Source: a virus. From it: a stretch of 64,000 nt of DNA. Below, piece after piece: positions 18-58,811 of the stretch. The stretch lies in IMG/VR virus record IMGVR_UViG_3300036770_008728, positions 20,407 through 84,406 of that record; one strand, 5' to 3'. Within the stretch, counting starts at the first letter, position 1, and each line of letters starts with the position of its first letter. The notes beneath the pieces were generated by a model. The model searched no databases and was not told the DNA's origin. It saw only the letters and a program-made list of their open reading frames with translations. The translations under genes were made by a program, and so were the position numbers.

Positions 18-71
18 GTTTGTTAATCCTTCAATTGTGATAAAATCAGCTATAAACGGAACAATATAATC

Positions 72-413
72 ATGCTAAAAAATATAGCCGTTAGCGTCCC
101 GAGTGAGGTGTATGAAATACTGAATTCAATGACAGTATCATCACCCCGGTCATTACTCAGTATAAAGTTACTGAGAGCCTTTTTCAAAGAGAACCCACCG
201 CTTCGGGATATGTCAGGCCTTTTGGACCAAGACACGCATTCCTTCACTCTGCGCATTCCCCAGGATCTCATCGAACAACTGGAGCGGTTTGCTAACCGTA
301 TGGCCTACAACCGCCATACGGCTCTGCTGGTCGCTCTGGTCGCTCAGATTGCTGCAGAGCAGCCTTACTTCAGAGAACCGACATCAATGCCGGCCGGTAA
401 CGTAAAGTGGTAA
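72..413 (+). CDS. Ribbon-helix-helix-like DNA-binding protein
   Basis: Two strand-helix segments (NIAVSVPSEVYEIL; SFTLRIPQDLIEQLERFA) typical of Arc/CopG folds. Confidence 0.55.
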   Translation: MLKNIAVSVPSEVYEILNSMTVSSPRSLLSIKLLRAFFKENPPLRDMSGLLDQDTHSFTLRIPQDLIEQLERFANRMAYNRHTALLVALVAQIAAEQPYFREPTSMPAGNVKW

Positions 414-877
414 GCCATAGTAGGTGTTACTGCCCAAGGCTGGCCACAATACTCAGCTTCGCTTAACATAAATTCAATGCAGGATAGTTTATCCAACTGA
501 TTGAATTTCTCTGCGAGACCTAACGCAAAACCCAAAAGATGCGACGTATCATATTCTGTCGCTGCCTTAGCTTTCGCACGATAACCCTCCAGAGCTTTTT
601 GCTTATCACGCACGGCCAATAACCGGATTTCGACCCGACCGTTGTAACGCTTTAAAAACTCAGCAATCGGAGTTTCAACTACCCGATTGTGGGTTTCTTT
701 TAAATGTTTCTGACCCAGTACCTTGAGCTTGAAAAGAGCACTAAATGAACCCTTGGATTCAATGGCTACTTCGCGCTCACGGTCATACACAGCGCCATGG
801 CTGAACTTACCCGTGAGCCGGATTAACCAGCTTACGGGATGATTCCCAATGGCGAACAACGTTTCTACATACTGCAC
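365..877 (-). CDS. Permuted papain-like (YiiX/YebB, NlpC/P60-related) amidase
   Basis: SWLIR...FSHGA (His near N-terminus), YD, and CIEF (Cys near C-terminus). Confidence 0.6.
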   Translation of the reverse strand: MQYVETLFAIGNHPVSWLIRLTGKFSHGAVYDREREVAIESKGSFSALFKLKVLGQKHLKETHNRVVETPIAEFLKRYNGRVEIRLLAVRDKQKALEGYRAKAKAATEYDTSHLLGFALGLAEKFNQLDKLSCIEFMLSEAEYCGQPWAVTPTMAYHFTLPAGIDVGSLK

Positions 878-886
878 AGGGACCTC

Positions 887-1333
887 CTAATTAACGCTCT
901 GGATTGAGGCTTGGAAAGTGATTCCCTGCATTGCTACTTGCGAGTTTTTCATAACGGGCATCAGTCGCGTGGTACCCATCATCTTCAACTCGCCAACCCT
1001 TTGGTTGTTATTGTCATAATATGGAATAACTGACCCCGGCTGCAGAACTTCAAAAATCACATTAAGCCGGCTCATCAAACGCATGTTGTTCGCATCGTTG
1101 TAGGTGGCGCACACGATCATGGCGGACGTTGCGGACAAGGCTGAACCATCGTTGGCCGAGTACATCGCAAAGTTTTGCATCCCCACGAAATCATTGCTCG
1201 GAAGCTCTACTTCACTGGCCAGCGCATCGAGGTTAATTGGCTCGACCGTCATCTGGTCGACGCTGGCGAATTCGCTGGCCATCTCCGTGATAAACCGCAG
1301 CACCGACTGGTGAGTAAATTCAAGCTTATTCAT
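887..1333 (-). CDS. Putative tail completion/terminator protein
   Basis: Size and position in structural operon only. Confidence 0.4.
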   Translation of the reverse strand: MNKLEFTHQSVLRFITEMASEFASVDQMTVEPINLDALASEVELPSNDFVGMQNFAMYSANDGSALSATSAMIVCATYNDANNMRLMSRLNVIFEVLQPGSVIPYYDNNNQRVGELKMMGTTRLMPVMKNSQVAMQGITFQASIQSVN

Positions 1334-4000: not shown

Positions 4001-4018
4001 AGAAGCTCCAGAAGTACT

Positions 4019-4053: not shown

Positions 4054-5271
4054 TTACGCCATGTTCAACACAGTGCGGGTATCACCAAAGATCAGCTTGT
4101 AACCTGAGTTGATAGTGCGTGTGTAGGTGATAGTCTGGTTCTTAATGGCTTGCTCAGACTCACGGATATCTGAGTTCGCTTCAATCAGCTCTTCCAGAGT
4201 ATCTGCACGGCTGTAACAAATCAGTTTGTTCGCCGGAGCTGCAGACGCCAGTTTGAAAGACACGCCTTTCAGCAAGTCCATGGCCAGGCTGACTTTCGGC
4301 GCACCTTTCTCTTGCAGGTGCTCTGCAACAGACTTATTGGCCGTGGTTGGGTTGAACATCAGGAACAGTTCCAGATACATGTCCAGGTTACCCACCATGG
4401 TATCCACTGGGGTACCGGCTTTGGCACGGGCTACCAGGAACTTCATCAGCGCGATGTAGTTGTCTTTCAGCGTTTTACCAGCAGAGAAGTCCGCACCATG
4501 CACAGACAGGTTAACTACTGGAGCCGCACTATAAACCGCATCGCCATTAATGAGTTGGCCTACCGCAGCAGAGACTTTACTGATTTGCAGCTGACGTTCT
4601 ACGCGGGCAGCGTAAGGCTTCAAAATGTCCATTGCTACACGGCGTTCGAACTCATAGGTGGTACGAATCGCAGAACCATGTTTATAGAAACGAACGTTGT
4701 TTTCAGTCGCTGTGATGTCATACACAGGAATGCTGGCGCCTTCAGCGATCATCGAAGTACTACGGGCTTCTTGTGAATCCTGCAGGATTGCACGAGTCAG
4801 AACTTCCGTACCACGAATGGTCCGTGTCTGGGCTACGAGACCTTCCGTCGATTCCATTTCATCCATGCGGGTTTCCCAGCGAAGCATGTCATCAATGACT
4901 TCTGGAAACAGGGCACGAGTACCCGGCTTGAAGTTGAAGGTATCCGCTGCAGCTTCTAACAGGATGCCCTGTTTGAAATCCTGGCGAGTTGGTAAGCCTA
5001 AGTGCATCAGCGCAGCTTCGTAACCACTTAAATGGTCGCCACCGGCTAACAGATATGGATTGATCTGTTGGTTGTTTACTTCAATCGTAGACTTTGGAAT
5101 ATCTACGGCTAAGGTCAGGTAATCGCGCAGGTTCAAACCATATTCTTTGGCCTTGGAGCAAAGAATATGGCCGGCTTGAGCAGATTTGAACGTATCTTCA
5201 GATGCGATATCACCCAGAACTAAAGCCAATGGTTGGCGCTGGATCTCGGTTAAACGACGGTATGCTGTCAT
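4054..5271 (-). CDS. Major capsid protein
   Basis: 405 aa; follows protease/scaffold and decoration genes; IAEGASIP..K.G pattern of HK97-fold capsids. Confidence 0.8.
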   Translation of the reverse strand: MTAYRRLTEIQRQPLALVLGDIASEDTFKSAQAGHILCSKAKEYGLNLRDYLTLAVDIPKSTIEVNNQQINPYLLAGGDHLSGYEAALMHLGLPTRQDFKQGILLEAAADTFNFKPGTRALFPEVIDDMLRWETRMDEMESTEGLVAQTRTIRGTEVLTRAILQDSQEARSTSMIAEGASIPVYDITATENNVRFYKHGSAIRTTYEFERRVAMDILKPYAARVERQLQISKVSAAVGQLINGDAVYSAAPVVNLSVHGADFSAGKTLKDNYIALMKFLVARAKAGTPVDTMVGNLDMYLELFLMFNPTTANKSVAEHLQEKGAPKVSLAMDLLKGVSFKLASAAPANKLICYSRADTLEELIEANSDIRESEQAIKNQTITYTRTINSGYKLIFGDTRTVLNMA

Positions 5272-5332
5272 GCTTGTTAATCCTATTCTAATTTTAGTGG
5301 AGGCGGGCTAGGCCCGCACGACCAACGAGCTG

Positions 5333-5737: not shown

Positions 5738-6886
5738 TTAACGTGGTGACTTGTAAAGTGCCGCCTGACCCAGCATGGCTGGTACTGCAGCAGGTTGTTG
5801 TTTATCCGCCGGGTCAGTAACACCACCACGAGGGATTGCCGCCAGTACAACCTTGGCTTCGTCAATCGCTGCGATCATCTGTTCCGGAGTTGCGTTTGGA
5901 ACTTCTGTCAGGTTTGCCGCAACACAAGCTGCCTTGTACTGTCCTGACAGGAAAGTTGTTACTGTCGCGTGAGAGGCCTTGATCGTGTCCAGCTCTTTCA
6001 CGGTATCCGTTGAAGCCGCTTCCAGCTTGGTTTTCAGCTCAGCGATTTCGGTATTAGCGGTTGTCAGTGCAGCCTGTGAAGCAGTTAACTGGTCAGCCAA
6101 CGTCTTCTTCTCACTTTCTAACCGCCCATTGGTTTGCGCCAGTTCCAGCATTTGTGGATCCATGACATCTCCTGTGGGGTTGGTTTTTGGGGGTTGTGGT
6201 GCCAGGGTGACGGCACTAAACAGGAAAGACAGATCTGGTTGTGCACCAGATGCCGCCAGTCGCTGGTAAGTTTCAGCACCCAGACGTTGCTTGGCTGCGC
6301 CAAGGATTTTTGCTTTTGATGAAGCGCCACGGTTCACCAAGCTCAGCTCGGTCCATGTGTTCATCTCAGTTAAACGAAGGTGAACGCCGTCTTTACCCAG
6401 CTGATGTTCATTGGGACATTCACGGGCATACAGGTAGTACGGTTCTGACATGTAATCAAAATCACACTGACTGCAGAAAGCATGTTTGGGTAAAGTGCCC
6501 ACGGATACTTCGTCAATAATGCTGGTATCAATTTTTTCCAGCAGTGCCGTTTCCGTCGCCAGAAGATAAAACGCGGTATTTAATTCCCAGTGACCAGCTT
6601 CGGCGGCAAACACGTCAGCCATGAACACCCGGCCGGTAGGCAGGGTGTAGTCGTCGTGCATGATTTGAAGAGTTACAGGGTTTGATTTGAGGTGTGCAGA
6701 CATCTGACGCAGATACGCTTCAGTCATCTGAGCACCGTTATATGGGGAGTAACGCTGGGAAATCGGGCGCGTAGAAGCTGCCACAGCTTCGTAGGCAACG
6801 ATTTTGCTGAAATCCATATCTGGATCACCAGCAACAGCACGAATGGCTTCTTTGTGCTTTTCAGTCAGCTCAAGGCGTTTTGCCAT
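5738..6886 (-). CDS. Prohead protease/scaffold fusion
   Basis: IMH..LPTGRV, VSVG and ELSLV motifs followed by a coiled-coil C-terminus. Confidence 0.7.
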   Translation of the reverse strand: MAKRLELTEKHKEAIRAVAGDPDMDFSKIVAYEAVAASTRPISQRYSPYNGAQMTEAYLRQMSAHLKSNPVTLQIMHDDYTLPTGRVFMADVFAAEAGHWELNTAFYLLATETALLEKIDTSIIDEVSVGTLPKHAFCSQCDFDYMSEPYYLYARECPNEHQLGKDGVHLRLTEMNTWTELSLVNRGASSKAKILGAAKQRLGAETYQRLAASGAQPDLSFLFSAVTLAPQPPKTNPTGDVMDPQMLELAQTNGRLESEKKTLADQLTASQAALTTANTEIAELKTKLEAASTDTVKELDTIKASHATVTTFLSGQYKAACVAANLTEVPNATPEQMIAAIDEAKVVLAAIPRGGVTDPADKQQPAAVPAMLGQAALYKSPR

Positions 6887-6939
6887 GTTTGTTAATCCTC
6901 AAATTGTCTATTTATGCTAGAGCATTTTATTTCGAACTT

Positions 6940-10182: not shown

Positions 10183-10544
10183 TTGGTCTTCTTTTCGAGC
10201 TCAATCGACAGCTGGTTCAGCTTCTCGTTGAGCTGGGTGAGTTGCGTCAGCACCCGATCCGTTTGTTGTGCTGACGCCGCCTGATTTGCATCAAGCGTTT
10301 TCTGGAACGCGGCTAACCGGTTGTCCACAGAGGTCTCAAGCCGGCCGACGGCGCCATTGAAGTCGGCCTTCGACAGATACTCGTCTTTCATCGAGTACTG
10401 CCGGTCATCGAGTTTCTGCATCCACACAAACATCACCGTTAAGCCGGCCATGATGAATGGACTCACGAAAATCGCAGCCTGGTGTAACCAGTGCAGCGCT
10501 GCGTGGGCATTCTGAGTGCCGAGTTGTTTGTTATCTTCAGACAT
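10179..10544 (-). CDS. Single-TM coiled-coil protein (holin/spanin-like)
   Basis: One hydrophobic helix then coiled coil; directly downstream of endolysin. Confidence 0.45.
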   Translation of the reverse strand: MSEDNKQLGTQNAHAALHWLHQAAIFVSPFIMAGLTVMFVWMQKLDDRQYSMKDEYLSKADFNGAVGRLETSVDNRLAAFQKTLDANQAASAQQTDRVLTQLTQLNEKLNQLSIELEKKTK

Positions 10545-11082
10545 TGCCACCGGCCTTACGGAAAATTTCCCGGGCACACTTCAGGTCGATGTCATAGAAA
10601 ATCACGCTGTCTTTTTGTTTGATGGTGAAGCCCATGCCGGCCAGGTTCCCGCAGCCGATGTGTAGCCACGTCACCGAATCACCTTCTTCGACAAAGGTGA
10701 TGAACGGGTAGAGTTCCGGATGTTTTTCAATATGGTCGCGGACTTCCGCCGCCGGTGTGGTACTGAACGTGATGTCCAGTGCTCGACCAAAACTATGGTC
10801 TGAGAATTGTTTGAAGTGCGGGTCGCCCGGTAATCGCAGGCCACGGTACTGCAGGTTCCCGCCAAACGACCAGTTGTTTATCGTCGCGGTACCAATCTTC
10901 TGGCCTTCTTCGTCCAGACAGAACCTGTCGGCCAGAGCGTCGGCCATCATCAGGATCCGTGGGTCGATATAACGCAGAACGCGGTTTTCCCCTAACTGCT
11001 GGAACGCCTTCTGACTTACCAACTCTGCGGGCTTGAAGTGGCGCGGGCGGTAAAAATTAAGCGCGGTGCTCACGTCCGACAT
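10537..11082 (-). CDS. Endolysin, peptidase M15 family
   Basis: YRGLR, SDHSFGRALD (SxHxxGxAxD) and WLHI zinc-peptidase motifs. Confidence 0.8.
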   Translation of the reverse strand: MSDVSTALNFYRPRHFKPAELVSQKAFQQLGENRVLRYIDPRILMMADALADRFCLDEEGQKIGTATINNWSFGGNLQYRGLRLPGDPHFKQFSDHSFGRALDITFSTTPAAEVRDHIEKHPELYPFITFVEEGDSVTWLHIGCGNLAGMGFTIKQKDSVIFYDIDLKCAREIFRKAGGNV

Positions 11083-11215
11083 GCTTGTTAATCCTCTGAT
11101 TGTATTGCCTGATTTTGTGCGGCAATTTCAGTATATCACCGGATAATTTGAATGTGGAACGGCAATATTCCGGTATGATTCACTGGAAAGTAACACATCG
11201 ACAGGATTAACAAGC

Positions 11216-12622: not shown

Positions 12623-12857
12623 GGCATACCTCTAAATTTTTAAAATTTTTTCCGGGAGCTATCTTACCCCACATCGCGCTTCGGACACAATAGCACAGAA
12701 AAAACCTGTACACCTTGCCAGATATTGCCATAATGCAAGGGCAGACCAGCTGCAAACGAGGCCCACCGGCTTCGACGCTCTAGTACTGCCCTTAGCCAGG
12801 ACACGGTTGGAAACTTCCAACCGAACCGAACCAAGCCAAACAATGGGATTAATAAAC

Positions 12858-14651: not shown

Positions 14652-14673
14652 AATCAAAATTAAGGATTAACAA

Positions 14674-14973: not shown

Positions 14974-15058
14974 TGGTGCTTGACGAATGTGGTGTGGGTA
15001 GTATCTTTCTGACCGTCACCTGACATTCAGGGACAGAACAATTAGGGATTAACAAAAC

Positions 15059-16187: not shown

Positions 16188-16388
16188 TGGGCAACAAAAT
16201 GTACGTTTCACCAACCCATGAACAAGCAGCCGAGTTCTACAACCGATTGTTCCCGTTCCCTCAGGTTTCCACCACACCATACAAAATCACAGGCCCTCTG
16301 CGGATTAACCTGGTGGCCAGGGCGGTGCGTGTTGCTCTGAGTGACTGGGCCTATTGGGATTTTCCTCGTGAAGTGGTGGAGGTGTGTG

Positions 16389-19526: not shown

Positions 19527-19787
19527 CGATTATGTATAGTCTGGGCACAAATGACAAGGTGGATTGTCTGTTATTTGTACTATTTAGCCATTAGGATTTA
19601 AAACAAAATTAAGAGCGCCAAAGGGCGAACTTTTAGTGTCAGAGGGATTTGCACGGATCGCCACTGACCATTAGGATTAACAAACATCTGTTTGTCATGG
19701 GGCTGTACATCGGCCCCTATAACTTGCTCTGTAAACCGGAGCCATTTGCTTCTAAAACGAAGTAACGAACCATTAGGATTAACAATT

Positions 19788-20114: not shown

Positions 20115-20171
20115 GATTTTTCGGAGCCCTGTAAACCGGGGTTTTTTTGACTAACCATTAGGATTAACATC

Positions 20172-20947: not shown

Positions 20948-20967
20948 CAATCAGGGGATTAACAAAC

Positions 20968-21517: not shown

Positions 21518-21561
21518 TCCTGTACATCGGGACTGTCACTAACCATTAGGATTAACAAATT

Positions 21562-23124: not shown

Positions 23125-23182
23125 ACCGGCCCCCGCCAAAGGGGTGGGGCCTTTAGTACCCTAACCATTAGGATTAACGAAT

Positions 23183-23986: not shown

Positions 23987-24041
23987 TTTTCCCCCGCCAA
24001 AGGGTGGGCTCTTTACTACCAACCATTAGGATTAACAAATC

Positions 24042-26521: not shown

Positions 26522-26573
26522 CCACGGTCCTGCCAAAGGGTGGGACTTTCACAACCATTAGGATTAACAAACT

Positions 26574-27044: not shown

Positions 27045-27068
27045 TCAAACAATTCGGGATTAACAAAC

Positions 27069-29514: not shown

Positions 29515-29542
29515 CCCGCAACAACCAGAAGGATTAACAAAC

Positions 29543-30661: not shown

Positions 30662-30692
30662 TTCAATTCAACAATCAGAAGGATTAACAGAC

Positions 30693-30947: not shown

Positions 30948-31162
30948 GCAACGTAAATGCTTTCGTTGAAAGTGAAAAACTGTTTGAAGAATTTGGTGAA
31001 GAACATCCTGAATATGCCCGCTATGAATGGGAATCCGCCGTGGTCAATGGTGAAACCATTCTCGGTTACTGGATGTGGGTTCAGGACCAGATAGAACAGT
31101 CCAAGTAAAACAAAAAACGCCGGCGGCAACCGTCGCCGGCACAACAATTAGGATTAACGAAC

Positions 31163-32185: not shown

Positions 32186-32241
32186 TTTAAGAACCCGCCG
32201 GCGGCAAAGGTCGCCGGCATCAACCATTAGGATTAACGATC

Positions 32242-33341: not shown

Positions 33342-33391
33342 ATTCCCTGTCGGGGCAAAGGCCCCGACTCTCTAACCATTAGGATTAACAA

Positions 33392-35999: not shown

Positions 36000-36090
36000 A
36001 AAGTTTGGGGGGCTTTTCGTACCCCCAAACTTCGTTAAAATACGCCAAGGACGACAAAGGTCGGCCGTTAAATGATTAGGATTAACAAAC

Positions 36091-39204: not shown

Positions 39205-39236
39205 GCTAAAAACAATCAAAATTAGGATTAACAACC

Positions 39237-39533: not shown

Positions 39534-39708
39534 TTACACTTGTCCTCAGCTAATACCTCGTAACATTGGTCAACCCCCGGTACTGGGGGTTTCTTTGAGG
39601 TTTAGCTTGAGACTGAGCGTATCGGCCTTGGACCTTCCAAGGTTCAATTCCGATGCTCTTAGCATCTCCACAATCTGGGATTAACAATCATAATCGAGGT
39701 AAAAAATC

Positions 39709-40662: not shown

Positions 40663-40730
40663 TCGCTACCGGAGGCCGGCAAACGCCGGCCTCCACAAAC
40701 AATTCGGATTAACAAACAAGCAGGTGACCT

Positions 40731-43490: not shown

Positions 43491-43507
43491 ATTTGGGATT
43501 AGCAAAC

Positions 43508-46727: not shown

Positions 46728-47359
46728 AAAAAGACTTTCAACACAGTGACTCAGGTACCGATGAGGAACTGAAGAATCTATGGCAAACGCCGCCTTTTGT
46801 CAGAGCCTGGGTGATGAATCAATACCTGATTGGCTTTGATACCGCGGCGGATGCTGACAACTGTCTGGTACCGAACTTCTGGTGCGAGGAAGACAGTGCA
46901 CTGGAAAAGATGTGGTACCCATTGTCGGACCCCAATGCGTGGTACTGGTGCAATCCACCATACGACAACATTGACCCATGGGTGCAGAAAGCTGTCCAGT
47001 CAATGGTGCTGGGTGGTCGGGTGCTTATGCTGGTGCCGTGTGACTTGACGACAGATTGGGCGGGGATGTCTATCAACATGTCCACCATGATTAATCATCT
47101 GACGGGGCTCCGCATTAATTTCTCTGATCCCATGGCACCAAAGACGGGGAAGGAACGGAGCCAAAACAATAAGGGTTCAGTGCTGTATGAGTTTGATGGT
47201 CACTGCTTTGAGTACAGCGGCCAAAAGCGCACGACCTATCTGAACTGCAGAGAAATTAAACGGGTGGGGAATTTACTACTGAAATCAGTCAGTGATGACC
47301 TGTGCCGGCTGAGAACTCCATTTGCAGAACTGATTCAACCAGTAAGACCAAATTTATAG
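46718..47359 (+). CDS. Phage Dam-like N6-adenine DNA methyltransferase
   Basis: WQTP, DTAA, WCNPPY, PWVQKA. Confidence 0.88.
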   Translation: MVVKKDFQHSDSGTDEELKNLWQTPPFVRAWVMNQYLIGFDTAADADNCLVPNFWCEEDSALEKMWYPLSDPNAWYWCNPPYDNIDPWVQKAVQSMVLGGRVLMLVPCDLTTDWAGMSINMSTMINHLTGLRINFSDPMAPKTGKERSQNNKGSVLYEFDGHCFEYSGQKRTTYLNCREIKRVGNLLLKSVSDDLCRLRTPFAELIQPVRPNL

Positions 47360-47371
47360 GATTAACAAAAC

Positions 47372-49544: not shown

Positions 49545-49768
49545 CCGTGAGTGTCGGGTCTTTAATCGTGGGTCTGTGTTTTCTGGCCGCTGGGATTGGC
49601 GGCTTCATCTTGGGTTACTTAGAAAAAAAGTCTGAAGCTGCAGAGCTCAGGCGATTCGGTGCCCCCGGTAATTTAGCGACCGATAGAAGGGAGAGTTCGG
49701 AGGATCCGACTATTCCCTTTGGCTGATTTTAAGACTACCATTTAATAACAATTTGAGGATTAACAACT

Positions 49769-50353
49769 ATGGCACTTCTGCTGACTGCTGAGGGCTTTCA
49801 AAAGCTCTACACTGACATTCTTACCTTGCGTCAAACTTTCCTCCTGCCGGTCAATATTGGCCGCGAATTGAGCCCTGAAGAACTGGCTCAACATGAAAAA
49901 ATCTTCCGCTCTGAATTCAAAGAACTGGTTCAGGCCTCCACTCGTGTCCTGCAACTCGATGGCTTTGTTGATGCCGTGGTTACACTAATGGGGCGCATCG
50001 TTCACCGTGGCCTGCCAGATTTGGCTCATCTTTACAGCTACATGCCGGGTGAAGCCTTCTTTATCAACGAAATGCTGGTGGGTGCCGAATCGCTGGATAT
50101 GAAGTTCTGGCCGGCTTGGGATGAAATTCAGGCCAGTAACCTGAGTAAAGTCTGTCCAGATGAAGCAAACCGGGACCAGACGATCAGCCATTATGAAGTG
50201 CTGGGTGTCCCCGTGTACGCTGAAGAAACTCCAACCGGCGGCTTTGTTATCAAAGTCGCTGAAGAAGTCACCGTGAATGGTGAGCTGTATCCGAAGGGTA
50301 AATTCTTAAAGTCGGTAACGTACAACAAGCCGAATTTAAAACCGTTCGTCTGA
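49769..50353 (+). CDS. MazG-like NTP pyrophosphohydrolase
   Basis: EFKEL, DGFVD, EIQASNLSK, GKFLK. Confidence 0.7.
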   Translation: MALLLTAEGFQKLYTDILTLRQTFLLPVNIGRELSPEELAQHEKIFRSEFKELVQASTRVLQLDGFVDAVVTLMGRIVHRGLPDLAHLYSYMPGEAFFINEMLVGAESLDMKFWPAWDEIQASNLSKVCPDEANRDQTISHYEVLGVPVYAEETPTGGFVIKVAEEVTVNGELYPKGKFLKSVTYNKPNLKPFV

Positions 50354-50414
50354 AAATTTTAGGATTAACAAACAGGCCCGCAAATGCGGGCCTACCTGTG
50401 AAATAGGTATTGGC

Positions 50415-53400
50415 ATGTCAAAGCATCCTCAGATCACACTTAGTGTGTTCACGAAGTTTTCAGGACCGCTGACCAAACAACTGAGCCTGGTGAATGGCAA
50501 GGTTAACAGCGATAGTAGTGAATGTCGGATGTCAAACGGTCTGGCTGAGCGCATCACCCTCCCATTTGACCAGTTGCCCCAGTTCTTTAGTAGCCTCAAC
50601 CCAATGCAAGCTGTTGCGACTGGTTGGGTTACGACTGAAGCCGCCACTGTAGAAATTATCACTAAAGACAAATTTGAAGATAATAACTACCTGTTCCCGG
50701 CGCACGTTACTCCACAGGGTGTCTTCGCAACACGAACCCTGAAATCTATCGGCCAGTCAGGCCCATCTCTGGTTATGTTCGACCATGACCATGACGAATT
50801 CTCACCACACAATGTGCATACGCCAGAGGAGTTTATCCAGCTGCTGAGCACCGTGGTACCCGATTTTGACAAGATTACGTTCCTGCGGACTTACTCAACT
50901 TCATCGTCTGTCTATCATGCTAAGACCGGTGAGTGTCTGCGGCCGGCGGATGGCTTCCATATTTACATGGCTGTGCCAGATGGTGCGGACGTACAGCGCT
51001 TTGGTGAAGTGCTTGAGAAGCGGCTGTGGCTGGCCGGCCTTGGCTATATCAAGGTTAGTGCTCGGAACGGTAGCTCACTGAAACGAACCGTTGTAGATAC
51101 AGCGGTATTCAGTCCTGAGCGTCTGATATTCGAAGCAGGGGCAGTAATCGTCCCAGGTAATCCGATTGTTCAGCGACTGCCGCAGCCGGAATTTGTTGAA
51201 AAAGCCCTGTCGTTTTTGGATACCACAAAGCTGCTGGATCTGACTGATGATGAGGAAGAGGCTTACCAGCAAGCGGTAAAGCAGGCACAGAATACTGATG
51301 TGGTGCTGGCCTCCAAGCAACAAGTTAAAGAGCGCCTGACCGAGGATTACATTGAGCAGGCCCGCCGGCAAGGTAAGATTTTATCTCGTCGCAGTGCTCA
51401 GAAAATGGTGGAAGGTCTCGAAAAGCATATCCTCCCACCATTTCATCCAATCATTCTGAGTGATGGTACTCAGGTCTCCATCCTGGAGCTCGTCAGTAAT
51501 CCAGCGAAGTACGATGGTCGCAGCTGCTTTGACCCGCTCCGGCCGGATAAAGGTGCTGACCGCGCCAAGTTCTACGCCAACTTAGACCAGGCTGTACCAA
51601 ATCCGGTTATCCACTCGTTCGTGGAAGGCTCACGGAACTTCAACCTCCGCGAGAGTATGAAGCTGCTGGCCCAGAACATTACCGAAGATGACGGTGATGA
51701 CCTGCGGGAAATTGCGAACACTTTCACTACGATGAACCAGCGTTATGTCACGGGCATCCAGCTGGCTCCGGGTTGGAATCTGGTAAAAAGCGATAAAGGT
51801 ACCGGCAAAACAAAAGAAATTGCCGGCGTGTTGCGGGAATCCAAGATGTCGATCTTGGCGGTGACTCACCGCGTCAGTTTAACGCACTCAATCAGCCGGG
51901 ACTTTGGTCTAGCCTGTTACAACGAAGCGGAAGTCAGCGCCAGCCACGTTCTGCGCTCACAGTCCCGCCTCGGCATCTGTTACGACAGTCTGCATAAGAT
52001 TGCGGGCCAGACCTATGACGTTGTGGTGCTGGATGAAGTGACGCAGCTGATGCGCCACGTTAAATCCGGCTCAGTGAAGCAGAAGTTCATCTGTTTGAAC
52101 GTTCTGCGGAGCATCCTGTTAAACGCTAAGTACGTGATTGCCATGGATGCGGATTTGGCCGTGCCGTTTGTGGAGATCCTGCGGGACTCAGAAATCGGCT
52201 GGATGAAACCTGCAACCCCAATCAGCGTTTTCGTGAACAGCTACAAGCCGGCAAAAGAACAAAAACGTCAACTTCGGGTCTATACTCAGGATGGTTCTAA
52301 GCCAAGCGAGGTAGGCTGGACGTTGGCATTACTGGAGCATGTGCTCGACAACGGAACTTTCGTAGCGACCAATTCAAAGACGAACACCTATGACCTGGCC
52401 AACACTATCGGCCGGCAGTTGGGTATGGAGCCGACCCAGATTATCAGTGAAGGCCATTTTATCACCGAGATAAAAGGGCGCCGGATTATTACCATCACCT
52501 CGGATAACTCCGGGGATGAGCAGGTAGCCAACTTCATCACGAACCTCAACGAAGAGCTGCGGGATAGCGATATCCTGATTGCATCACCATCAGTTGGTAC
52601 AGGCGTATCCATTAACGCTGTCAACGACCAAGCTCGGTTCAGCCGGACGTTTGGCCGGTTTACTCGGCGGGCCGGTAACACCTCGGGTGACTGCAGCCAG
52701 CACTTAAGCCGGGTTCGTGAGTGCCGTGAGTTTGATTTGGTGGTAATGGACACCTCTGAAATGGATGACGTCGACCCGGATATCATCATCCAGAAAGCCA
52801 TCATCAATAAACTGCGGGTGATTGACCGTCAGGTGGAATTCACTGATTTGAACTTCTGCCCATTTACTCGGAAGTACCAGTTCAGTGACGGCTCATGGTC
52901 ACAGTGGTTGGGTAAACTCACGGCGCTGGAAAATCTGGATCGTAATGAGTTCACCAGCAACATTCTGAACCGGCTGGTCGACGAGGGTTATTCCATCGAG
53001 TATCTGGAATCCAAGGTGAACAGCGCCAAGGCTGAAGAAATCAAAGAAGGCATGGAGCTCGTCATTGAAGAGCGCAAAGCCTTTGAACTCGAACAGCTGC
53101 AGAACGCCACTCTTATTACTGACGAAGAACTGGAGACTTTGGAAACGAAGATCTCCCTGACTGTCGAAGAAAAACGCCAATTGAAGAAGCGGAAAACCGC
53201 GGACACGTTTGGCGCCTATGAACATGAACCGTTGGCTGAACTCCTGGCTCTGCCTAAGGAAAGTTACAACAGCCGCCGTAACGGCCTCATGTTCGGTATG
53301 AATGGTGAAACCCTGTTCGTCATGGACTTGGTTAACCGGTTAGACCCAGAGAAGCAGCACATCGAGAAGACCGCTCACTTTGCGAAGTGGAACCTTATGT

Positions 53401-53930
53401 GGCAAATCGCTTCGATGGTTGGTGTTAATCTGGGATCCGATGGACTCCCGCATAACACCGAGTTAATTGTCACTGACGATATACGTAATGCCATTTATGA
53501 CTTCTTGTTTGAGAACCGGGGCGATGTTCAGGTCCTGCTCAATGCCACTGTGAAATGGTACAAGAAAACTCAGCTGACTGACCGGTATAAAGCTGTTGGC
53601 CGGATCATGAGTCTGATGGGCCTAAAATTGCAACGTGTGAAGGTTGCACCGGCACTTTATGTGTATCAAATTGACAAAGAAAGATTTAACATTCTGATCG
53701 AAGATATTTGTAGAGCAAAACAACACAGCCCCTCAAATAGCTTTAAAACCTTGGTCACAACGCCAAAATTCTTGGTAAGCTATGTGGCACAGTGGTCTGC
53801 AGGAACTCCGGAACGGTTAAAAAATGTTCACAGTTATGTGAGCCGGCTACAACCGTACCAAGCATCAGTGCTTCGGGGTTTCATGCTCAGAATGATAAAA
53901 AATCACATGGAAAGTGCTGAATGTGCATAG
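50415..53930 (+). CDS. Primase-like N-domain fused to origin-binding-protein-type SF2 helicase
   Basis: FDHD and GFHIY (AEP-like); KGTGKT, THRVSL, LDEV, MDAD, SPSVGTGVS, QHLSRVR. Confidence 0.75.
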   Translation: MSKHPQITLSVFTKFSGPLTKQLSLVNGKVNSDSSECRMSNGLAERITLPFDQLPQFFSSLNPMQAVATGWVTTEAATVEIITKDKFEDNNYLFPAHVTPQGVFATRTLKSIGQSGPSLVMFDHDHDEFSPHNVHTPEEFIQLLSTVVPDFDKITFLRTYSTSSSVYHAKTGECLRPADGFHIYMAVPDGADVQRFGEVLEKRLWLAGLGYIKVSARNGSSLKRTVVDTAVFSPERLIFEAGAVIVPGNPIVQRLPQPEFVEKALSFLDTTKLLDLTDDEEEAYQQAVKQAQNTDVVLASKQQVKERLTEDYIEQARRQGKILSRRSAQKMVEGLEKHILPPFHPIILSDGTQVSILELVSNPAKYDGRSCFDPLRPDKGADRAKFYANLDQAVPNPVIHSFVEGSRNFNLRESMKLLAQNITEDDGDDLREIANTFTTMNQRYVTGIQLAPGWNLVKSDKGTGKTKEIAGVLRESKMSILAVTHRVSLTHSISRDFGLACYNEAEVSASHVLRSQSRLGICYDSLHKIAGQTYDVVVLDEVTQLMRHVKSGSVKQKFICLNVLRSILLNAKYVIAMDADLAVPFVEILRDSEIGWMKPATPISVFVNSYKPAKEQKRQLRVYTQDGSKPSEVGWTLALLEHVLDNGTFVATNSKTNTYDLANTIGRQLGMEPTQIISEGHFITEIKGRRIITITSDNSGDEQVANFITNLNEELRDSDILIASPSVGTGVSINAVNDQARFSRTFGRFTRRAGNTSGDCSQHLSRVRECREFDLVVMDTSEMDDVDPDIIIQKAIINKLRVIDRQVEFTDLNFCPFTRKYQFSDGSWSQWLGKLTALENLDRNEFTSNILNRLVDEGYSIEYLESKVNSAKAEEIKEGMELVIEERKAFELEQLQNATLITDEELETLETKISLTVEEKRQLKKRKTADTFGAYEHEPLAELLALPKESYNSRRNGLMFGMNGETLFVMDLVNRLDPEKQHIEKTAHFAKWNLMWQIASMVGVNLGSDGLPHNTELIVTDDIRNAIYDFLFENRGDVQVLLNATVKWYKKTQLTDRYKAVGRIMSLMGLKLQRVKVAPALYVYQIDKERFNILIEDICRAKQHSPSNSFKTLVTTPKFLVSYVAQWSAGTPERLKNVHSYVSRLQPYQASVLRGFMLRMIKNHMESAECA

Positions 53931-53945
53931 CACATCTATTTGGAG

Positions 53946-54461
53946 ATGCGGGTGGTGAATAAGCCTATTCTAACTTTGAAACGGAATCCGACTGGGGCAG
54001 CAAAGTCCCGGTCGGCAGAAACGTCAAATTTCTCAAAACCAAAACCGGTTGAGAAGGTTCAAGCTTATCACGACTTGGGTCGGGTAATGGCCGAGCTCCG
54101 GAAAATGGGATACAAGGTGCGCTGGAAAGAGCCCCTGTCCAAAGCCATTTACCAGGAGATTCGGGCGGTACTGCCCAAAGAATTCATCTCCAGTCGGGCA
54201 CTTTATGATGCAATCGGTTACTTGGTGAAATCTATCAAGTACCTTCTGAAGATGCGGGATGGTGCGTTCCGTTACAACCTGGCCGGCAAGAAAGCCGGGA
54301 CTGTAACCGCTGAAGAATCCAAATTTGCACTGCAGGAACTGCTGAATCATCACGGTGATTACATGCGGGAACGTCGCCAGAGAGCAAAGAAGATTATCAC
54401 AGCGCACAAGCCATCTCGCTCAGGCGGACCACATGGCAAAAAACACGGGAAAGACCTCTGA
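53946..54461 (+). CDS. ProQ/FinO-domain RNA-binding protein
   Basis: PLSKAIYQEI...ALYDAI...YL.KMRDGAFRYNLAGKKAGTVT.EE matches the FinO-fold pattern. Confidence 0.78.
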   Translation: MRVVNKPILTLKRNPTGAAKSRSAETSNFSKPKPVEKVQAYHDLGRVMAELRKMGYKVRWKEPLSKAIYQEIRAVLPKEFISSRALYDAIGYLVKSIKYLLKMRDGAFRYNLAGKKAGTVTAEESKFALQELLNHHGDYMRERRQRAKKIITAHKPSRSGGPHGKKHGKDL

Positions 54462-54843: not shown

Positions 54844-54927
54844 TGACCTTTGGTTAAGCGGGGGGCCTTCCCCCGTTTAGTTTCAGGCTCATCATTAAAA
54901 ATTTTGGATTAACAAACAGGAATCATC

Positions 54928-56031
54928 ATGACTATGCCATTGCATGAAGAGCGGGTTATTGCTAATTCTCGCGCTCAAGTTTTCCCAGAGTCTCCGCTGG
55001 GTATTACCTCCCCACTGAATAAATATCTCAATCATCTGTACGTTCTGGGCGACCCTCATCTGGGCCGGCGCTTTACTGCAGGTGTTCCACTGGCCAGACG
55101 CGGTGAGCGTGAAGCCGAAATTCGTGAGCTGTTCCACAGCGAAGTTGTCTGCGTTAAGCCCGGCCGGCAGTTCCACGTCTGTATGGGTGATCTGTTCGAC
55201 GGCTGGACAGTGGACAACGAAACGGTTGAGTTCGCGTACCGGACCTACAAAGAAGCCAGCTGGCGCAACCCGGCAATCACTTACATCGTATTGGGCGGCA
55301 ACCACGACAAAGCCAAGGACAAAACCAAAGTCTCCAGCTTCCAGATTTTCGCGGAGCTGTGCCGGGACCTTGAAAACGTGCACGTCCTCACAGACACCAT
55401 TATGCAGCGCTCCTTCGATGGCCTGAACTTCCTGTTCGTTCCCTGGGTGCCGTGGCATAGCAGTAACCAGCAACTTTTCATCGAGCAGCCGAAGTTCATG
55501 ACCAAAGGCGAGGACTTTAAATTCATCGCTCTGGGCCACTGGGATATCGAAGACTACGGCAAAGGTGACGACGAAGTTCCTGGCCTGATCCCCTGGCAAC
55601 ACCTGAAAGCGCCACAGTGCGAAGGCATCATTACTGGCCATTTCCACAAACGTCAGCGCACCATCATGAATGGCATTGACGTGTTTGTGTCCGGTTCTAT
55701 GGCGCCATACGCTCACGGTGAAGACGATGATAATGCTGAGGACCCGCAATACCTCACATTACCCCGTGCAGAGGTTCTGTCGCGTCTGGAGGCCGACCCG
55801 GAAGCATTCGCCAGTAAATGCCTGCGTGTGTTGCTGGCCGACGACGAAGAACCACTGGCAGACATTAACTGCCTGCAGCTGACGATGAAGCGTGGCGCCG
55901 TGGGTAAGAATGCTGATGCCGTGCTGGATGTGAAGGTCGATGATTTTTCACTGAAGGTTTTATTCGATCAAGTGATGAGCGAGAAGGGTGTTTCTGAATC
56001 CCTGACTCGTGAGCTTTGGGAAAAACTTTAG
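54928..56031 (+). CDS. SbcD/Mre11-like metallophosphoesterase nuclease
   Basis: GDPHLG, GDLFD, GNHD, GHW, GHFH. Confidence 0.88.
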   Translation: MTMPLHEERVIANSRAQVFPESPLGITSPLNKYLNHLYVLGDPHLGRRFTAGVPLARRGEREAEIRELFHSEVVCVKPGRQFHVCMGDLFDGWTVDNETVEFAYRTYKEASWRNPAITYIVLGGNHDKAKDKTKVSSFQIFAELCRDLENVHVLTDTIMQRSFDGLNFLFVPWVPWHSSNQQLFIEQPKFMTKGEDFKFIALGHWDIEDYGKGDDEVPGLIPWQHLKAPQCEGIITGHFHKRQRTIMNGIDVFVSGSMAPYAHGEDDDNAEDPQYLTLPRAEVLSRLEADPEAFASKCLRVLLADDEEPLADINCLQLTMKRGAVGKNADAVLDVKVDDFSLKVLFDQVMSEKGVSESLTRELWEKL

Positions 56032-56040
56032 GAGCAGGCC

Positions 56041-58248
56041 ATGTTAAAGCATATTAAGTACGATCTGGAATTCTCTAATGGTGCCCGCCGTAAAATGGAC
56101 ACCGAACTGTTAGCCGGCTCAACACTCATCACCGGCAAGAACGGCCGCGGCAAATCCCTAATTTTGGAGATGTTTGGCTATCTGCTGTTTGGTTCTCAAG
56201 CGCTGCGGGGTGTAGCCGCCGACTATAAAAAGATGAATGTCGAAGGTACGGTCACCATTCGTGGCCGGGACTATAAAATTGTCCGCTCGAAGTCAAAGGC
56301 GGATATTTTTGATGCCGACGGTAATGTCATCGTCACCAGTACATCCGCGGTTAACGAGCACATTACGCAGCTTCTGGGATACAACTATGATGTGTTCCGT
56401 ATCAGCAATTGGTGTGCCCAAGGGGATATCCAGGCACTGGCCAACATGAAACCAACCGAGCGGAAGGCCATGATCGACAACGTGGCCGGTTTGACGCAGC
56501 TGGACGGTCTTATTGAAATCACCAAGCAGAGCATTAAGGTTCTGAAGGCTTCGGTTAGCGCCGTTGAAAATGCGCTGGTAAAACCGCTGGAGCCAACTAA
56601 ACCTGAGGTGGCCAGGAGCTGGGCGGTGGATTCGCTTGAAGAACAGAACACTTATTTGAGTGCCGCTCAGCAATCAGAAATGAAGCTGAACATGTTCCGT
56701 GTGCCACTGGCGGGCGAGGCCCCGGCTAAAGTGCGTGATCTGGTCCTGCCGGACGAACCAGTTCCGGCGCCACTGCCTCAGCTTGGTGACGCGCCGGCGA
56801 AACCAGAACCACGGCCTTTGCCGGTGTTTGAGCGTGAGAAACCGTTCAATAGTCGTGTGGGAGAGGGGGATACCCAGACGCTTCTGGACCGGGTTCTGGA
56901 CCTGCAAGTGAACCAATTCGGGCCAAAGTACAACAAGCTGAAAGAACTCTATGCAGGGATGTACAACCGCAAGCAGCATGTGTCTGACGAGATGTTGGCC
57001 CTTTGGAGGGGCAATCCTGATTTAGATTATTGGGACGAACAGCTCCAGCAATGGCGCAATAAACAGAGCTATGAGCAGTTGCTGGCTCAAGGTGATGTTA
57101 CTTGTCCAAGCTGCCAACACAGACACCCCGTGGCGGCGGAGGCACTTGCCAAATTTAACCCTGGGTTATTTCCAAAAGCTCAACCACCAGGACATACGGA
57201 GATCCGAATCGCTCAGGAGTACTGCCAGATTGAGGCGCAGTACACAAAGCTGATCGAAGAACTTACCACCATTTTTGGCGGTGAACCTGATGCCGTAGAT
57301 AAGCAGCTGGAAGAAATTCGGGTTGAGCTGGTGAACCACAAACAGGCCGAGGCCGAATATGCTCGGGCACTGGAACATCACCAGCAGCAGTGCCAATTCA
57401 TCGAGCAGAACAACCAGCAGGCGCTTGATAACTGGAAGCAGCAATGTGACAGTCGGTTGGTTCAACATCAGCAAATGGTGGATACCGTTCGCCAGAATAA
57501 CGAGCAGCGCCACAAAGATTGGCTGGCCCAGTGCAACCAACTCCGTCAGTCGCATCAACAATCCGTGGATGCCGCTAATTTGGCTCAGCAAAAGTGGGAG
57601 AAGGACATGCAGGCTCAACGCGATGCGGAATCAGAACTGGCAGAACTGAAGCACCGTTTCGCTCAGGATTACAGCCCAGAGCGTCTGCACGAAGCCCGCC
57701 GGAGTATTGAAGAGGCTCAGAAAACGATTGCTGACTGGCGCCTGTATGACAGCTTGTTTGGCGAGTATCAGCGCCTGCTGGAAAGCTACAACCTGGCCCT
57801 CAGCCGTTGTGATAACGAACGGGCTCAAATCGAAGACCAGACTAAAGCCCAAGCCGCGCTGGTCGAGATTAAGGCCCGTGTAAAAACGTACCTCATCCCG
57901 AGCCTGAACCGGGTGTCGAGCTACCTGCTGTCAGAGATGACCGGCGGTGAGCACAGCACGGTCCTGATGGACGAGAACTTTGAAGTGTTTGTCGACGGTC
58001 AGCCATTACGCACCATGTCCGGTTCTGGCAAGGACATCACCAACCTGGCCATTCGAATCGGCCTCGGTCGGATCCTGACACACAAAGTGCTGGGTATGAT
58101 GCTGCTCGATGAAGTGGACCAAGGTATGGATGACAGCCGTGCCGCCTATACGTGGGAATGTATCGAACGCATCACCCCACAAATTGGCCAGGTACTGCAG
58201 GTCAGCCATAAAGAGCTTCGAGCAGAAAACCGGTTAGTTGTCATGTAA
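56041..58248 (+). CDS. SbcC/Rad50-like SMC ATPase
   Basis: GKNGRGKS, Q-loop, CPSC zinc hook, MSGS signature, LLDEVD, VSH. Confidence 0.9.
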   Translation: MLKHIKYDLEFSNGARRKMDTELLAGSTLITGKNGRGKSLILEMFGYLLFGSQALRGVAADYKKMNVEGTVTIRGRDYKIVRSKSKADIFDADGNVIVTSTSAVNEHITQLLGYNYDVFRISNWCAQGDIQALANMKPTERKAMIDNVAGLTQLDGLIEITKQSIKVLKASVSAVENALVKPLEPTKPEVARSWAVDSLEEQNTYLSAAQQSEMKLNMFRVPLAGEAPAKVRDLVLPDEPVPAPLPQLGDAPAKPEPRPLPVFEREKPFNSRVGEGDTQTLLDRVLDLQVNQFGPKYNKLKELYAGMYNRKQHVSDEMLALWRGNPDLDYWDEQLQQWRNKQSYEQLLAQGDVTCPSCQHRHPVAAEALAKFNPGLFPKAQPPGHTEIRIAQEYCQIEAQYTKLIEELTTIFGGEPDAVDKQLEEIRVELVNHKQAEAEYARALEHHQQQCQFIEQNNQQALDNWKQQCDSRLVQHQQMVDTVRQNNEQRHKDWLAQCNQLRQSHQQSVDAANLAQQKWEKDMQAQRDAESELAELKHRFAQDYSPERLHEARRSIEEAQKTIADWRLYDSLFGEYQRLLESYNLALSRCDNERAQIEDQTKAQAALVEIKARVKTYLIPSLNRVSSYLLSEMTGGEHSTVLMDENFEVFVDGQPLRTMSGSGKDITNLAIRIGLGRILTHKVLGMMLLDEVDQGMDDSRAAYTWECIERITPQIGQVLQVSHKELRAENRLVVM

Positions 58249-58326
58249 GTCTCGGGTTGGCTGGGGTTGTCTCAACTCCAGCCAACCTCTATAATCAGAT
58301 TCTAAAATTAGGCAGGATTAACAAAC

Positions 58327-58788
58327 ATGACAGATGACGCAACTTTGCGGCTTGACCTGACACCTCACGATCTGCTCACCGAGCAAGATATGCTGGAGCT
58401 CACAGGCGTTTCCAGACCAGACATGCAGGCCCGGTGCCTGGCAGCGAACAACATCTACTTCCTTGTTAATCACAACAATATTCCAAAGACGACGTGGTAC
58501 CACGTCAATAACCCAATTCATCTTCGCACTCCCAGCTTATCCATGACCGACTTCGGCTATGGGTTCACCAAGACATTTCATCCAAAACGTGATAGCGGCG
58601 TACCTGCGGGACTCAGCCGGGACTCATGGGTAAAACGGATGACCAAATTCCTGGACAAGGTGTTTGCGAATATCGAAGAAGATGTGCCACCGCACATCAA
58701 ACAGCAAATTAAGGAAAATGCTGAACGGCTATCAAGGATGGAGGCCACTGCAGAAGAACAGCGCCAACGCAGTCAAACCGGCGCATAA
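58327..58788 (+). CDS. DUF4224-like DNA-binding protein
   Basis: LTEQDMLELTG...QARCL..NNIYF..P.TTW. Confidence 0.65.
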   Translation: MTDDATLRLDLTPHDLLTEQDMLELTGVSRPDMQARCLAANNIYFLVNHNNIPKTTWYHVNNPIHLRTPSLSMTDFGYGFTKTFHPKRDSGVPAGLSRDSWVKRMTKFLDKVFANIEEDVPPHIKQQIKENAERLSRMEATAEEQRQRSQTGA

Positions 58789-58811
58789 AAATTAGGGGAT
58801 TAACGAACATT

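Follow-up and report, generated by a model that had tools for sequence, protein, structure and literature searches.

The octamer GGATTAAC recurs throughout a stretch of 64,000 nucleotides (nt), here called the window, that comprises bases 20407-84406 of the 84,406-bp viral record IMGVR_UViG_3300036770_008728, which IMG/VR classes as a complete provirus. The motif stands a few nucleotides ahead of the start codon of roughly one in three phage genes, and related phages carry variants of their own at the same position. We lean, with a little more than even confidence, towards the explanation that a translation-initiation region common to many genes, with GGATTAAC at its core, is the target of one antisense small RNA (sRNA) of the phage, the predicted gene of which carries a mirror copy of the motif and lies in a gap between two tail genes.

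Both strands of the window together hold 33 exact copies of GGATTAAC, against a mean of 1.62 and a maximum of 6 in 100 dinucleotide-preserving shuffles, none of which (0/100) matched that number; the whole record holds 39. Intergenic position and co-orientation with the next gene are found for 31 of the 33 window copies (37/39 record-wide), and an ATG follows at 2-7 nt in 26 of the 33 (31/39 in the record), most commonly after the 4-nt spacer AAAC. The start codon is ATG at every start-adjacent copy. The two remaining window copies are intragenic (820-827 and 16302-16309), about the number expected by chance. Of the one-mismatch variants, GGATTAAT (12846-12853) and GGATTAGC (43496-43503) each lie 4 nt before the ATG of a real gene, and a third, GGATTTAA, stands without an open reading frame (ORF) at 19594-19601 in the early leader. 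A sequence-only reading of the window had reported 31 intergenic exact copies, all oriented with the downstream gene and most of them 2-7 nt before an ATG, together with two one-mismatch variants and two intragenic copies where about two would arise by chance; our recount upholds these figures. Some oriented copies lie away from a start: four 'far' copies (39678, 40706, 50362 and 54906) precede the start codon by 14-45 nt with a separate Shine-Dalgarno (SD) sequence in between, and no ORF is attached to the copy at 19674.

Alignment of 37 sites gave a consensus of approximately AA(C/A)(C/A)(A/T)TTA-GGATTAAC-AAAC-ATG, with 8 invariant positions and conserved flanks that extend from about -9 to +15; outside this range, in either direction, the 37-site alignment shows no conservation. 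The motif is conserved far beyond the need of an SD interaction. It is also specific to the phage and does not reflect a ribosome-binding habit of the host. The host is a Rheinheimera, since the Mdh protein encoded by the host gene on the record's right-hand end shares 90-94% identity with its counterparts in named Rheinheimera species (and 99% with the one in a metagenome-assembled genome that bears the label uncultured Chromatiaceae bacterium). Five Rheinheimera genomes of 3.8-4.7 Mb that lack this prophage contain 80-119 copies of GGATTAAC each, that is, about 20-25 per Mb compared with about 460 per Mb in the provirus, and an ATG follows at 2-7 nt in 7-9 copies per genome, a chance level of about 9% that is near the control pattern. 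Equal use before host genes, the observation that would have spoken for a host habit, was not seen in this comparison (7-9 of 80-119 copies before an ATG), and the earlier claim of phage specificity stands.

An 8-kb query found no close nucleotide-level relative in INPHARED, an exact 18-mer matched in IMG/VR only two unrelated contigs with 2-3 copies of the octamer each, and a single-protein locus search with the terminase gave no match. An alignment-based search for terminase homologs yielded 80 terminase-linked IMG/VR loci. The motif is a trait of a clade of marine siphoviruses of about 75-84 kb, and more distant relatives are without it. Pseudoalteromonas phage KB12-38, which is syntenic with the provirus, carries GGATTGAC 27 times, 25 of them just before an ATG, and two copies of GGATTAAC, neither at a start. 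Five IMG/VR genomes (G009, G012, G015, G010 and G017) have 20-39 start-associated copies of GGATTGACGAT or GGAAATTGACGATG type; the last four use GGAAATTGACGATG forms, with 28-39 start-associated copies of the top 7-mer, and G010 mixes ATTGAC and ATCGAC forms. No start-associated copy was found in G018, G019, G021 or Achromobacter phage JWF. Read by eye, about 22 of the 80 terminase-linked loci have the trait, all of them low in GC and with a terminase identity of at least 49%, some with ATCGAC forms. Across the relatives the distance from GGA to ATG is constant at 8-9 nt and the TTGAC block shifts inside this spacer. Orthologs of the motif-bearing genes of this phage have the motif at 48 of 70 starts, compared with 4 of 74 for orthologs of its other genes; the same regular expression found 3 matches in the non-clade columns of the comparison. 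A homogeneous variant private to each related phage, and orthologs that keep their motif status, support the view, already put forward in the sequence-only reading as 'a recognition site for one factor', that the motif behaves as the recognition site of one specific reader.

The mirror copy in the tail-gene gap and the ProQ/FinO gene

An inverted copy of the motif at record position 12348 (+) opposes the tail operon and has ATT instead of ATG; the gap that contains it measures 176 nt and separates the M-like from the L-like tail gene (the M-L gap). All seven motif genomes that were fully analysed have an inverted, ORF-less copy in an M-L gap of 170-250 nt; ORFs in this gap measure 0-37 codons and are not conserved, and the ATG is lost in three of the seven. 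Among non-motif relatives the gap measures 0-35 nt in three of four, and in G021 an ORF-bearing insert of 929 nt occupies it. On the tail strand the seven loci share the same order of elements: T[TG]GACN, 16-17 nt, TANNNT, then a 5' hairpin, next the anti-motif, and after it a further hairpin with a U-run. The sigma-70-type promoter of this phage reads TTGACT, 17 nt, TAATAT. The candidate sRNA gene occupies G000:C1 12308-12419 of the record on the minus strand (window coordinates -8098 to -7987, about 8 kb to the left of the window), and its predicted product of about 77 nt (75-81 nt across the seven genomes) consists of a 5' hairpin, a stretch with the mirror GTTAATCC and a terminator with a U-run.

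The conserved columns in the alignment of the seven loci are those of the -35, the -10, the anti-motif and the terminator, and the rest of the gap diverges. Five terminator base pairs show compensatory changes, and each mirror matches the motif variant of its own genome. The promoter-plus-mirror pattern was found in 9/9 clade records and in 0/17 other relatives; eight of the nine clade matches are at the homologous place, and the homologous site of G009, with a spacing of 32 nt, was found by separate inspection. By eye, the mirror stretch complements 24 of 25 positions of an early-class site. Across 29 motif genes, the mean predicted energy of the duplex from seed to start is -25.9 kcal/mol; 80 other genes give -10.5 and a shuffled seed gives -8.8, a contrast that is expected by construction; the value shows that pairing would be strong. 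In four of the seven predicted RNAs the unpaired probability of the anti-motif reaches 0.88 or more. The mirror of G010 has a G where 15 of 25 targets carry U and the remainder C, which fits a picture of switching that tolerates G-U pairs, and in this phage alone the conserved columns contain 13 G-U-compatible and 3 incompatible transitions, plus 6 transversions.

Two further mirrors were noticed in the window. On the minus strand at the 31151 copy, a terminator-like element (31142-31117), made up of a strong hairpin and a U-rich run of 10 nt, comes after the mirror; no minus-strand promoter was found within about 170 nt of this site, where the genes are all on the plus strand. The intragenic copy at 820-827 (+) lies within the minus-strand ORF 365-877, so that the minus-strand RNA carries the mirror GUUAAUCC there; judged by eye, this mirror falls in the loop of a small hairpin some 50 nt into the ORF, and the relatives have no homolog of that ORF. 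This mirror-like copy may be due to chance.

The second gene associated with the motif encodes a ProQ/FinO-family protein. A search of 28 related records for its domain, PF04352, succeeded in 9 of the 10 that belong to the motif clade, the exception being an 81%-complete fragment, and in 0 of the other 18. When the proteins of this phage were profiled for presence or absence in ten genomes, only four genes proved common to the six clade genomes and missing from each of the four outsiders: ProQ, the adjacent gene of a 1171-aa helicase-like protein, a gene for a 194-aa MazG-like protein (this likeness being a lead only) and one structural gene. The 194-aa protein was dropped as a candidate reader of the motif, as Atlas places it with MazG/PRA-PH pyrophosphohydrolases (score 0.94, TM 0.81; again a lead only). 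The mirror locus and the co-occurrence of ProQ lend in silico support to two of the readers that had been suggested earlier, an sRNA and the ProQ/FinO protein.

From this arrangement we infer that the sRNA is expressed and that it pairs with its targets in vivo. The GGA as SD sequence, the fixed spacer and the ATG would form a standardised start that heads most translationally coupled blocks, and its uniformity would be kept as the pairing site of a single phage-encoded sRNA. By pairing from the SD sequence through the AUG, the sRNA would block binding of the 30S subunit at the head of each coupled block, and the downstream genes would be silenced too. The phage ProQ/FinO protein probably grips the terminator and 3' tail of the sRNA and makes the duplex form faster, in the manner of FinO with FinP-traJ and of RocC with RocR. 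Because the sRNA promoter needs no phage factor, the likeliest role would be that of a post-transcriptional lock or threshold acting on leaky lytic transcripts in the lysogen, or else of a timer of the infection. More speculatively, the ORF-less leader copies and the 'far' copies could be extra pairing sites that act as attenuators, sponges or cleavage sites. A single-copy RNA reader might also ease the switch from one motif variant to another, since a seed that changes from C to U or from A to G would still pair with old sites through G-U pairs.

Several points weigh against this explanation. The sRNA is predicted from sequence, and no RNA sample was listed among the public runs consulted. 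Late structural genes bear the motif, yet the sRNA gene lies inside the late tail operon, and one sRNA would have to confront more than 30 abundant mRNAs. The four 'far' copies and the two ORF-less leader copies cannot act by plain occlusion of a start codon. In the fold predicted for this phage, for which the 5' end is itself predicted, the mirror is partly inside the 5' hairpin (mean unpaired 0.34). Pooled over the conserved columns, G-U-compatible transitions (40/1062) do not significantly exceed incompatible ones (29/1135; p = 0.11), and the unfiltered counts are 105 and 116, respectively. The promoter-plus-mirror search favours mirror-rich genomes, and three extra matches were seen with an estimate of about 0.2 chance matches per genome. 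Since the motif, the sRNA-like gene and ProQ mark one clade, their co-occurrence amounts to one evolutionary event. Finally, because the mirror is a copy of the motif on the other strand, covariation alone cannot split an sRNA gene from a copy that acts in reverse, and the two are separated only by the orientation of promoter and terminator and by the absence of an ORF.

Alternative readers of the motif

The motif could instead be read on the mRNA by a protein, either a phage translational repressor or activator like T4 RegA or ProQ itself, with the inverted copy as a decoy or unrelated. Uniformity within a genome and difference between genomes would fit co-evolution with any single trans-acting factor, ProQ co-occurs with the motif, and many early proteins belong to no known family. 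GC-rich hairpins also stand 8-19 nt upstream of many early copies (window 19616-40713), have no U-run and show loops of C-AAAG-G or GTAAACC type (for example before 23171, 24029, 26561, 32230, 33382 and 40706); these could belong to a protein site. However, besides ProQ none of the four clade-specific genes resembles that of an RNA or DNA binder, and FinO/ProQ proteins bind the terminator hairpin and 3' tail rather than a sequence (PMC9977716). A protein reader would also leave the conserved promoter, terminator and mirror of the M-L gap (7/7) unexplained, and we consider it unlikely.

That the motif sets the 5' ends of RNAs, as a promoter element for a modified host RNA polymerase producing leaderless or short-leader mRNAs or as a processing site for an endonuclease, seems quite unlikely. 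Its attraction is that 7 of the 37 oriented copies are off a start (the four 'far' ones, two ORF-less ones in the early leader and one in the tail gap) and that the hairpins directly upstream of many copies leave no space for a separate promoter, although most of these hairpins lack a U-run and read-through is plausible. The three tandem copies of the early leader are reminiscent of tandem early promoters; the 8-9 nt from GGA to ATG would also be plausible as the distance from a -10 element to a transcription start; and GG|AUU would fit the RNase E consensus. The alignment of the 37 sites shows nothing conserved from -40 to -10 upstream and no -10-like element downstream, and a sigma-70 scan around the motif returned 14 sites against 14.1 in shuffles. 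A six-frame profile search, the controls of which were positive in 10 of 14 genomes, found no Sigma70_r2 domain. Neither a conserved promoter geometry nor a phage sigma factor emerged from the scan, the alignment and the domain search, and the promoter element entertained by the sequence-only reading finds no footing in them. The statement in that reading that no RNA polymerase or sigma gene is recognisable is borne out for sigma; for the polymerase, Pfam gave none among the scanned proteins and the search for a T7-type enzyme (PF00940) had no match, but its positive control gave no match either. In the tail gap, moreover, the motif strand has no terminator, and it is the opposite strand that has a promoter and a terminator.

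A third alternative dispenses with a dedicated reader: an unstructured, A/U-rich ribosome-binding cassette could have been homogenised by recombination or gene conversion, in which case the inverted copy would have arisen as a by-product. Such homogenisation of intergenic cassettes has a model in the promoter/stem-loop cassettes of T4-type phages. Whole hairpin-plus-motif cassettes do repeat in some relatives, KB12-38 having 10 intergenic copies of one identical palindromic hairpin ahead of the motif and G015 and G010 each having repeated hairpins of their own; the motif is present wherever there is an intergenic gap; and the mixture of ATTGAC and ATCGAC forms in G010 could be read in the same way. 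In this phage, however, the upstream hairpins differ from one another in sequence, conservation around the motif spans only about 24 nt, and orthologs keep their motif status despite diverged flanks. The tail gap keeps its promoter hexamers, mirror and terminator amid divergence, which argues for selection and not for a by-product. We judge this alternative very unlikely.

Pairing of the spacer with host 16S rRNA, whether on helix 17, in the way of the T7 gene 10 epsilon enhancer, or through an extended anti-SD interaction, is barely credible: ATTAAC or ATTGAC can pair with GTTAAT, which occurs 2-3 times in the host 16S, including helix 17 (6 nt), and there is a 7-mer GTTAATC near 546, but no 8-mer complement of the motif exists in the Rheinheimera or Pseudoalteromonas 16S (the longest are 6-7-mers), a given 6-mer is estimated to occur by chance in about 30% of 1.5-kb sequences, ATCGAC variants pair worse, and host genes do not use the motif. 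The 16S 3' end, GGATCACCTCCTTA, is identical in both hosts and pairs with little beyond (A)GGA, yet their phages carry A and G variants, respectively. The extended complementarity to helix 17 (458-466) that would mark an epsilon-type enhancer was not found. Epsilon shares the letters TTAAC and the adjacency to an SD sequence with the motif, and lies upstream of that sequence; the element described here lies downstream and changes among related phages under a constant rRNA. The likeness to epsilon suggested in the sequence-only reading is therefore given up. O'Connor and Dahlberg are said to have found in 2001 that epsilon acts independently of the 460 region.

Motif-headed genes across the provirus

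Function labels were assigned with Pfam for 52 proteins and PHROGs for 7, and no regulators beyond ProQ, XRE and helix-turn-helix (HTH) proteins were found among them. The record begins at its left end with an integrase, followed by minus-strand tail genes (among them those for a 2185-aa J-like protein and a 1999-aa tape measure protein), capsid and terminase. After these minus-strand structural genes come the XRE region and then a long plus-strand early/replication block with genes for a C5 methylase, ligase, DndB, Pif1, SNF2, 5'-3' exonuclease, RdgC, a polymerase A homolog and Dam, and further on for an RNase T-like exonuclease, the 1171-aa helicase-like protein, ProQ, and SbcD-like and SbcC-like proteins. 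On the right the record ends with a fibre cassette and the host mdh gene.

Motif genes sit after gaps of at least 12 nt. Most of the other genes adjoin or overlap the one upstream; these have a canonical GGAGG or AGGAG and often start with GTG or TTG. For the count of translationally coupled chains, five antisense ORFs judged spurious were dropped and two ORFs were added. In the early/replication block, 24 of 32 chains (42/52 genes) begin with the motif, and in the structural block 9 of 13 (15/27 genes); the structural chains without it include the terminase-portal chain and a head-tail chain of 7 genes. Neither the minus-strand lysogeny region nor the right-end cassette has a motif-headed chain. 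The sequence-only reading had the motif mark the lytic programme, which holds for most early and replication chains and for 9 of the 13 structural ones, but fails for the terminase-portal and 7-gene head-tail chains; it correctly stated that no motif precedes the XRE region, the right-end fibre cassette or mdh. The early leader has two ORF-less copies, one of them a variant, ahead of the first copy that heads a gene. The motif sites and related features of the window are as follows.

22..29, minus strand: motif, 4 nt before the ATG of a 266-aa tail-module gene that ends at 17 and crosses the left window edge
5276..5283, minus strand: motif heading the capsid-like gene 4054-5271, the KB12-38 ortholog of which is annotated as capsid
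6891..6898, minus strand: motif heading the 382-aa head-module gene 5738-6886
11087..11094, minus strand: motif heading gene 10537-11082
11204..11211, plus strand: motif heading gene 11216-11740
12846..12853, plus strand: variant GGATTAAT before gene 12858-13601, predicted duplex with the sRNA seed -25.0 kcal/mol
14664..14671, plus strand: motif heading gene 14674-14973
15046..15053, plus strand: motif heading ORF 15059-15262
19594..19601, plus strand: ORF-less variant GGATTTAA in the early leader, preceded by CCATTA
19674..19681, plus strand: ORF-less exact copy in the early leader, with ATC replacing ATG and a hairpin directly after
19776..19783, plus strand: motif heading the first early gene, 19788-20114
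20161..20168, plus strand: motif heading gene 20172-20681
20956..20963, plus strand: motif heading gene 20968-21186
21549..21556, plus strand: motif heading gene 21562-22194
23171..23178, plus strand: motif heading gene 23183-23986
24029..24036, plus strand: motif heading ORF 24042-24521
26561..26568, plus strand: motif heading gene 26574-27044
27057..27064, plus strand: motif heading the C5 DNA methylase gene 27069-28427
29531..29538, plus strand: motif heading the ATP-dependent DNA ligase gene 29543-30661
30681..30688, plus strand: motif heading gene 30693-30947
31151..31158, plus strand: motif heading the DndB-family gene 31163-32185
32230..32237, plus strand: motif heading gene 32242-33039
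33382..33389, plus strand: motif heading the PIF1-like helicase gene 33392-34681
36079..36086, plus strand: motif heading gene 36091-36897
39225..39232, plus strand: motif heading gene 39237-39533
39678..39685, plus strand: 'far' copy, 23 nt before the ATG at 39709, with a separate GAGG between
40706..40713, plus strand: 'far' copy, 17 nt before the ATG of the 5'-3' exonuclease gene 40731-41528, orthologs of which have a start motif in 6/6 clade genomes
43496..43503, plus strand: variant GGATTAGC before the DNA polymerase A homolog 43508-46348, predicted duplex -22.2 kcal/mol
47359..47366, plus strand: motif heading gene 47372-48214, its first G overlapping the stop codon of the upstream Dam methylase gene
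49757..49764, plus strand: motif heading the 194-aa clade-specific gene 49769-50353 (MazG/PRA-PH-like, as a lead only)
50362..50369, plus strand: 'far' copy followed by a hairpin, 45 nt before the ATG of the 1171-aa helicase-like gene 50415-53930
53952..54461, plus strand: ProQ/FinO-family gene (PF04352, E 3.8e-11, 43.4 bits against a cut-off of 27), not headed by the motif
54906..54913, plus strand: 'far' copy, 14 nt before the ATG of the metallophosphoesterase gene 54928-56031; a second AGGA lies between
58315..58322, plus strand: motif heading gene 58327-58788 (DUF4224)
58797..58804, plus strand: motif, 7 nt before the ATG of the HTH_17 gene 58812-59021

Other features of the provirus and its relatives were noticed in passing. 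The segment 18120-18265 (+) of the window is strongly structured (minimum free energy -60.1 kcal/mol, z = -4.19, 0/200 shuffles as stable), with a long closing stem around a GGG-CUCAUAA-CCC hairpin, which corresponds to the anticodon arm of initiator tRNA; ARAGORN found no tRNA there and Rfam gave no match, and an Rfam scan of the window gave nothing at gathering score. Some octamers are enriched in this phage (ACTGGCCG/CGGCCAGT, 24 copies; GCTGCAGC, 32 copies) and in KB12-38 (ACTGGCCA/TGGCCAGT, 23 copies); DndB-like and methylase genes are present in both phages, so the octamers may serve as sites of modification or recognition. Small plus-strand ORFs lie inside the minus-strand tail module at window 72-413, with homologs in G012, G015 and G017 (29-33%), and at record 18891-19166, with a homolog in G009 (41%). 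The large terminases of several relatives (P0008, P0010, P0033, P0035 and others) measure 960-1000 aa and have PF14528 or PF05204 in the precomputed Pfam column, families of homing-endonuclease or intein type; this would suggest inteins in the terminase gene of some clade members.

Known systems and implications

The closest positional counterpart is the start-associated sequence (SAS) of Cluster K mycobacteriophages, an asymmetric repeat present in 11-19 or more copies, 3-7 nt before gene starts, in one orientation and mostly before ATG; it has an SD core, is conserved beyond its pairing with 16S rRNA and is nearly absent from the host, and some copies have an upstream extended element (PMC3203893). 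Its role was still called unknown in passages from 2024-2025 (PMC11373665, PMC12699233). The provirus follows the same positional logic, with many copies of one asymmetric sequence a few nucleotides from starts and oriented with the genes; the motif is likewise nearly absent from the host, as it is not used at the starts of the five Rheinheimera genomes; and both systems have a single inverted copy off gene starts. That of Mycobacterium phage Anaya (JF704106), with one mismatch, is at 59870 on the minus strand in the 385-nt non-coding gp96-gp97 gap; on the transcribed strand it reads as the SAS mirror with TTGACC 10 nt upstream, a layout that parallels the mirror copy described here. The systems differ in sequence (GGGATAGGAGCCC compared with GGATTAAC), in host phylum and in phage lineage. 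SAS is confined to the non-structural arm, whereas the motif is also found on structural genes (9/13 chains), and the passages of the Cluster K description (PMC3203893) hold nothing comparable to a ProQ gene and to a unit of promoter plus terminator around the mirror. Because the sequence differs and structural genes are motif-headed, we regard the motif as an analogue of SAS and not as a member.

For the mechanism, a FinOP- or RocCR-like system scaled to a whole genome would be the most economical model. In FinO/FinP-traJ of F-like plasmids and RocC/RocR of Legionella, a FinO/ProQ protein acts with an sRNA that has a terminator hairpin and a 3' tail and pairs with a ribosome-binding site, so that translation is repressed, and RocR acts in trans on several mRNAs (PMC9977716). 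The provirus encodes a FinO/ProQ-domain protein (PF04352) and, as a prediction in 7/7 genomes, an sRNA gene with promoter, terminator hairpin and U tail, the complementary stretch being the mirror inside the predicted RNA, again in 7/7. FinP has one target in cis and RocR has four (PMC9977716); the system described here is predicted from the sequence of a phage, and its target would be common to more than 30 starts. Phages do use antisense RNAs against their own mRNAs: c4 of P1/P7, sar of P22, and OOP and aQ of lambda pair with phage mRNAs, c4 and sar near the ribosome-binding site, and affect the lysis-lysogeny decision or immunity (PMC12197685). In that account each acts on one gene or operon and none on a standardised start repeated throughout a genome (PMC12197685). 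The sRNA locus was also considered as a member of the P1/P7 c4 family and rejected, as the covariance model of that family was not matched in the Rfam scan: record 12100-12600, scanned up to E = 10, gave 8 weak matches, all far below gathering scores and none of them C4.

What would be new in this phage is a variant that combines SAS-like start tags with antisense control of the FinO type. In the titles, abstracts and passages of the literature that were covered, no shared start motif with a mirror sRNA is described in these phages. Tentatively, and with slightly less than even confidence, we propose that one antisense sRNA, constitutively promoted and held by ProQ, thresholds or switches off most of the lytic proteome, that it forms a layer of RNA immunity on top of the repressor, and that the same logic may explain the SAS of Cluster K. 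The KB12-38 record names a bacterial host, so that these ideas could be taken to the bench, and the natural one-base variants are ready-made specificity swaps.

If this proposal is correct, the usual arrangement of an sRNA regulon would be reversed here, the targets having been made uniform for one RNA on the scale of a phage genome. It would provide a testable mechanism for start-associated sequences, which were described in 2011 and the role of which was still called unknown in papers of 2024-2025. It would also give a function to phage-encoded ProQ/FinO proteins and would add a post-transcriptional layer to the control of lysogeny.

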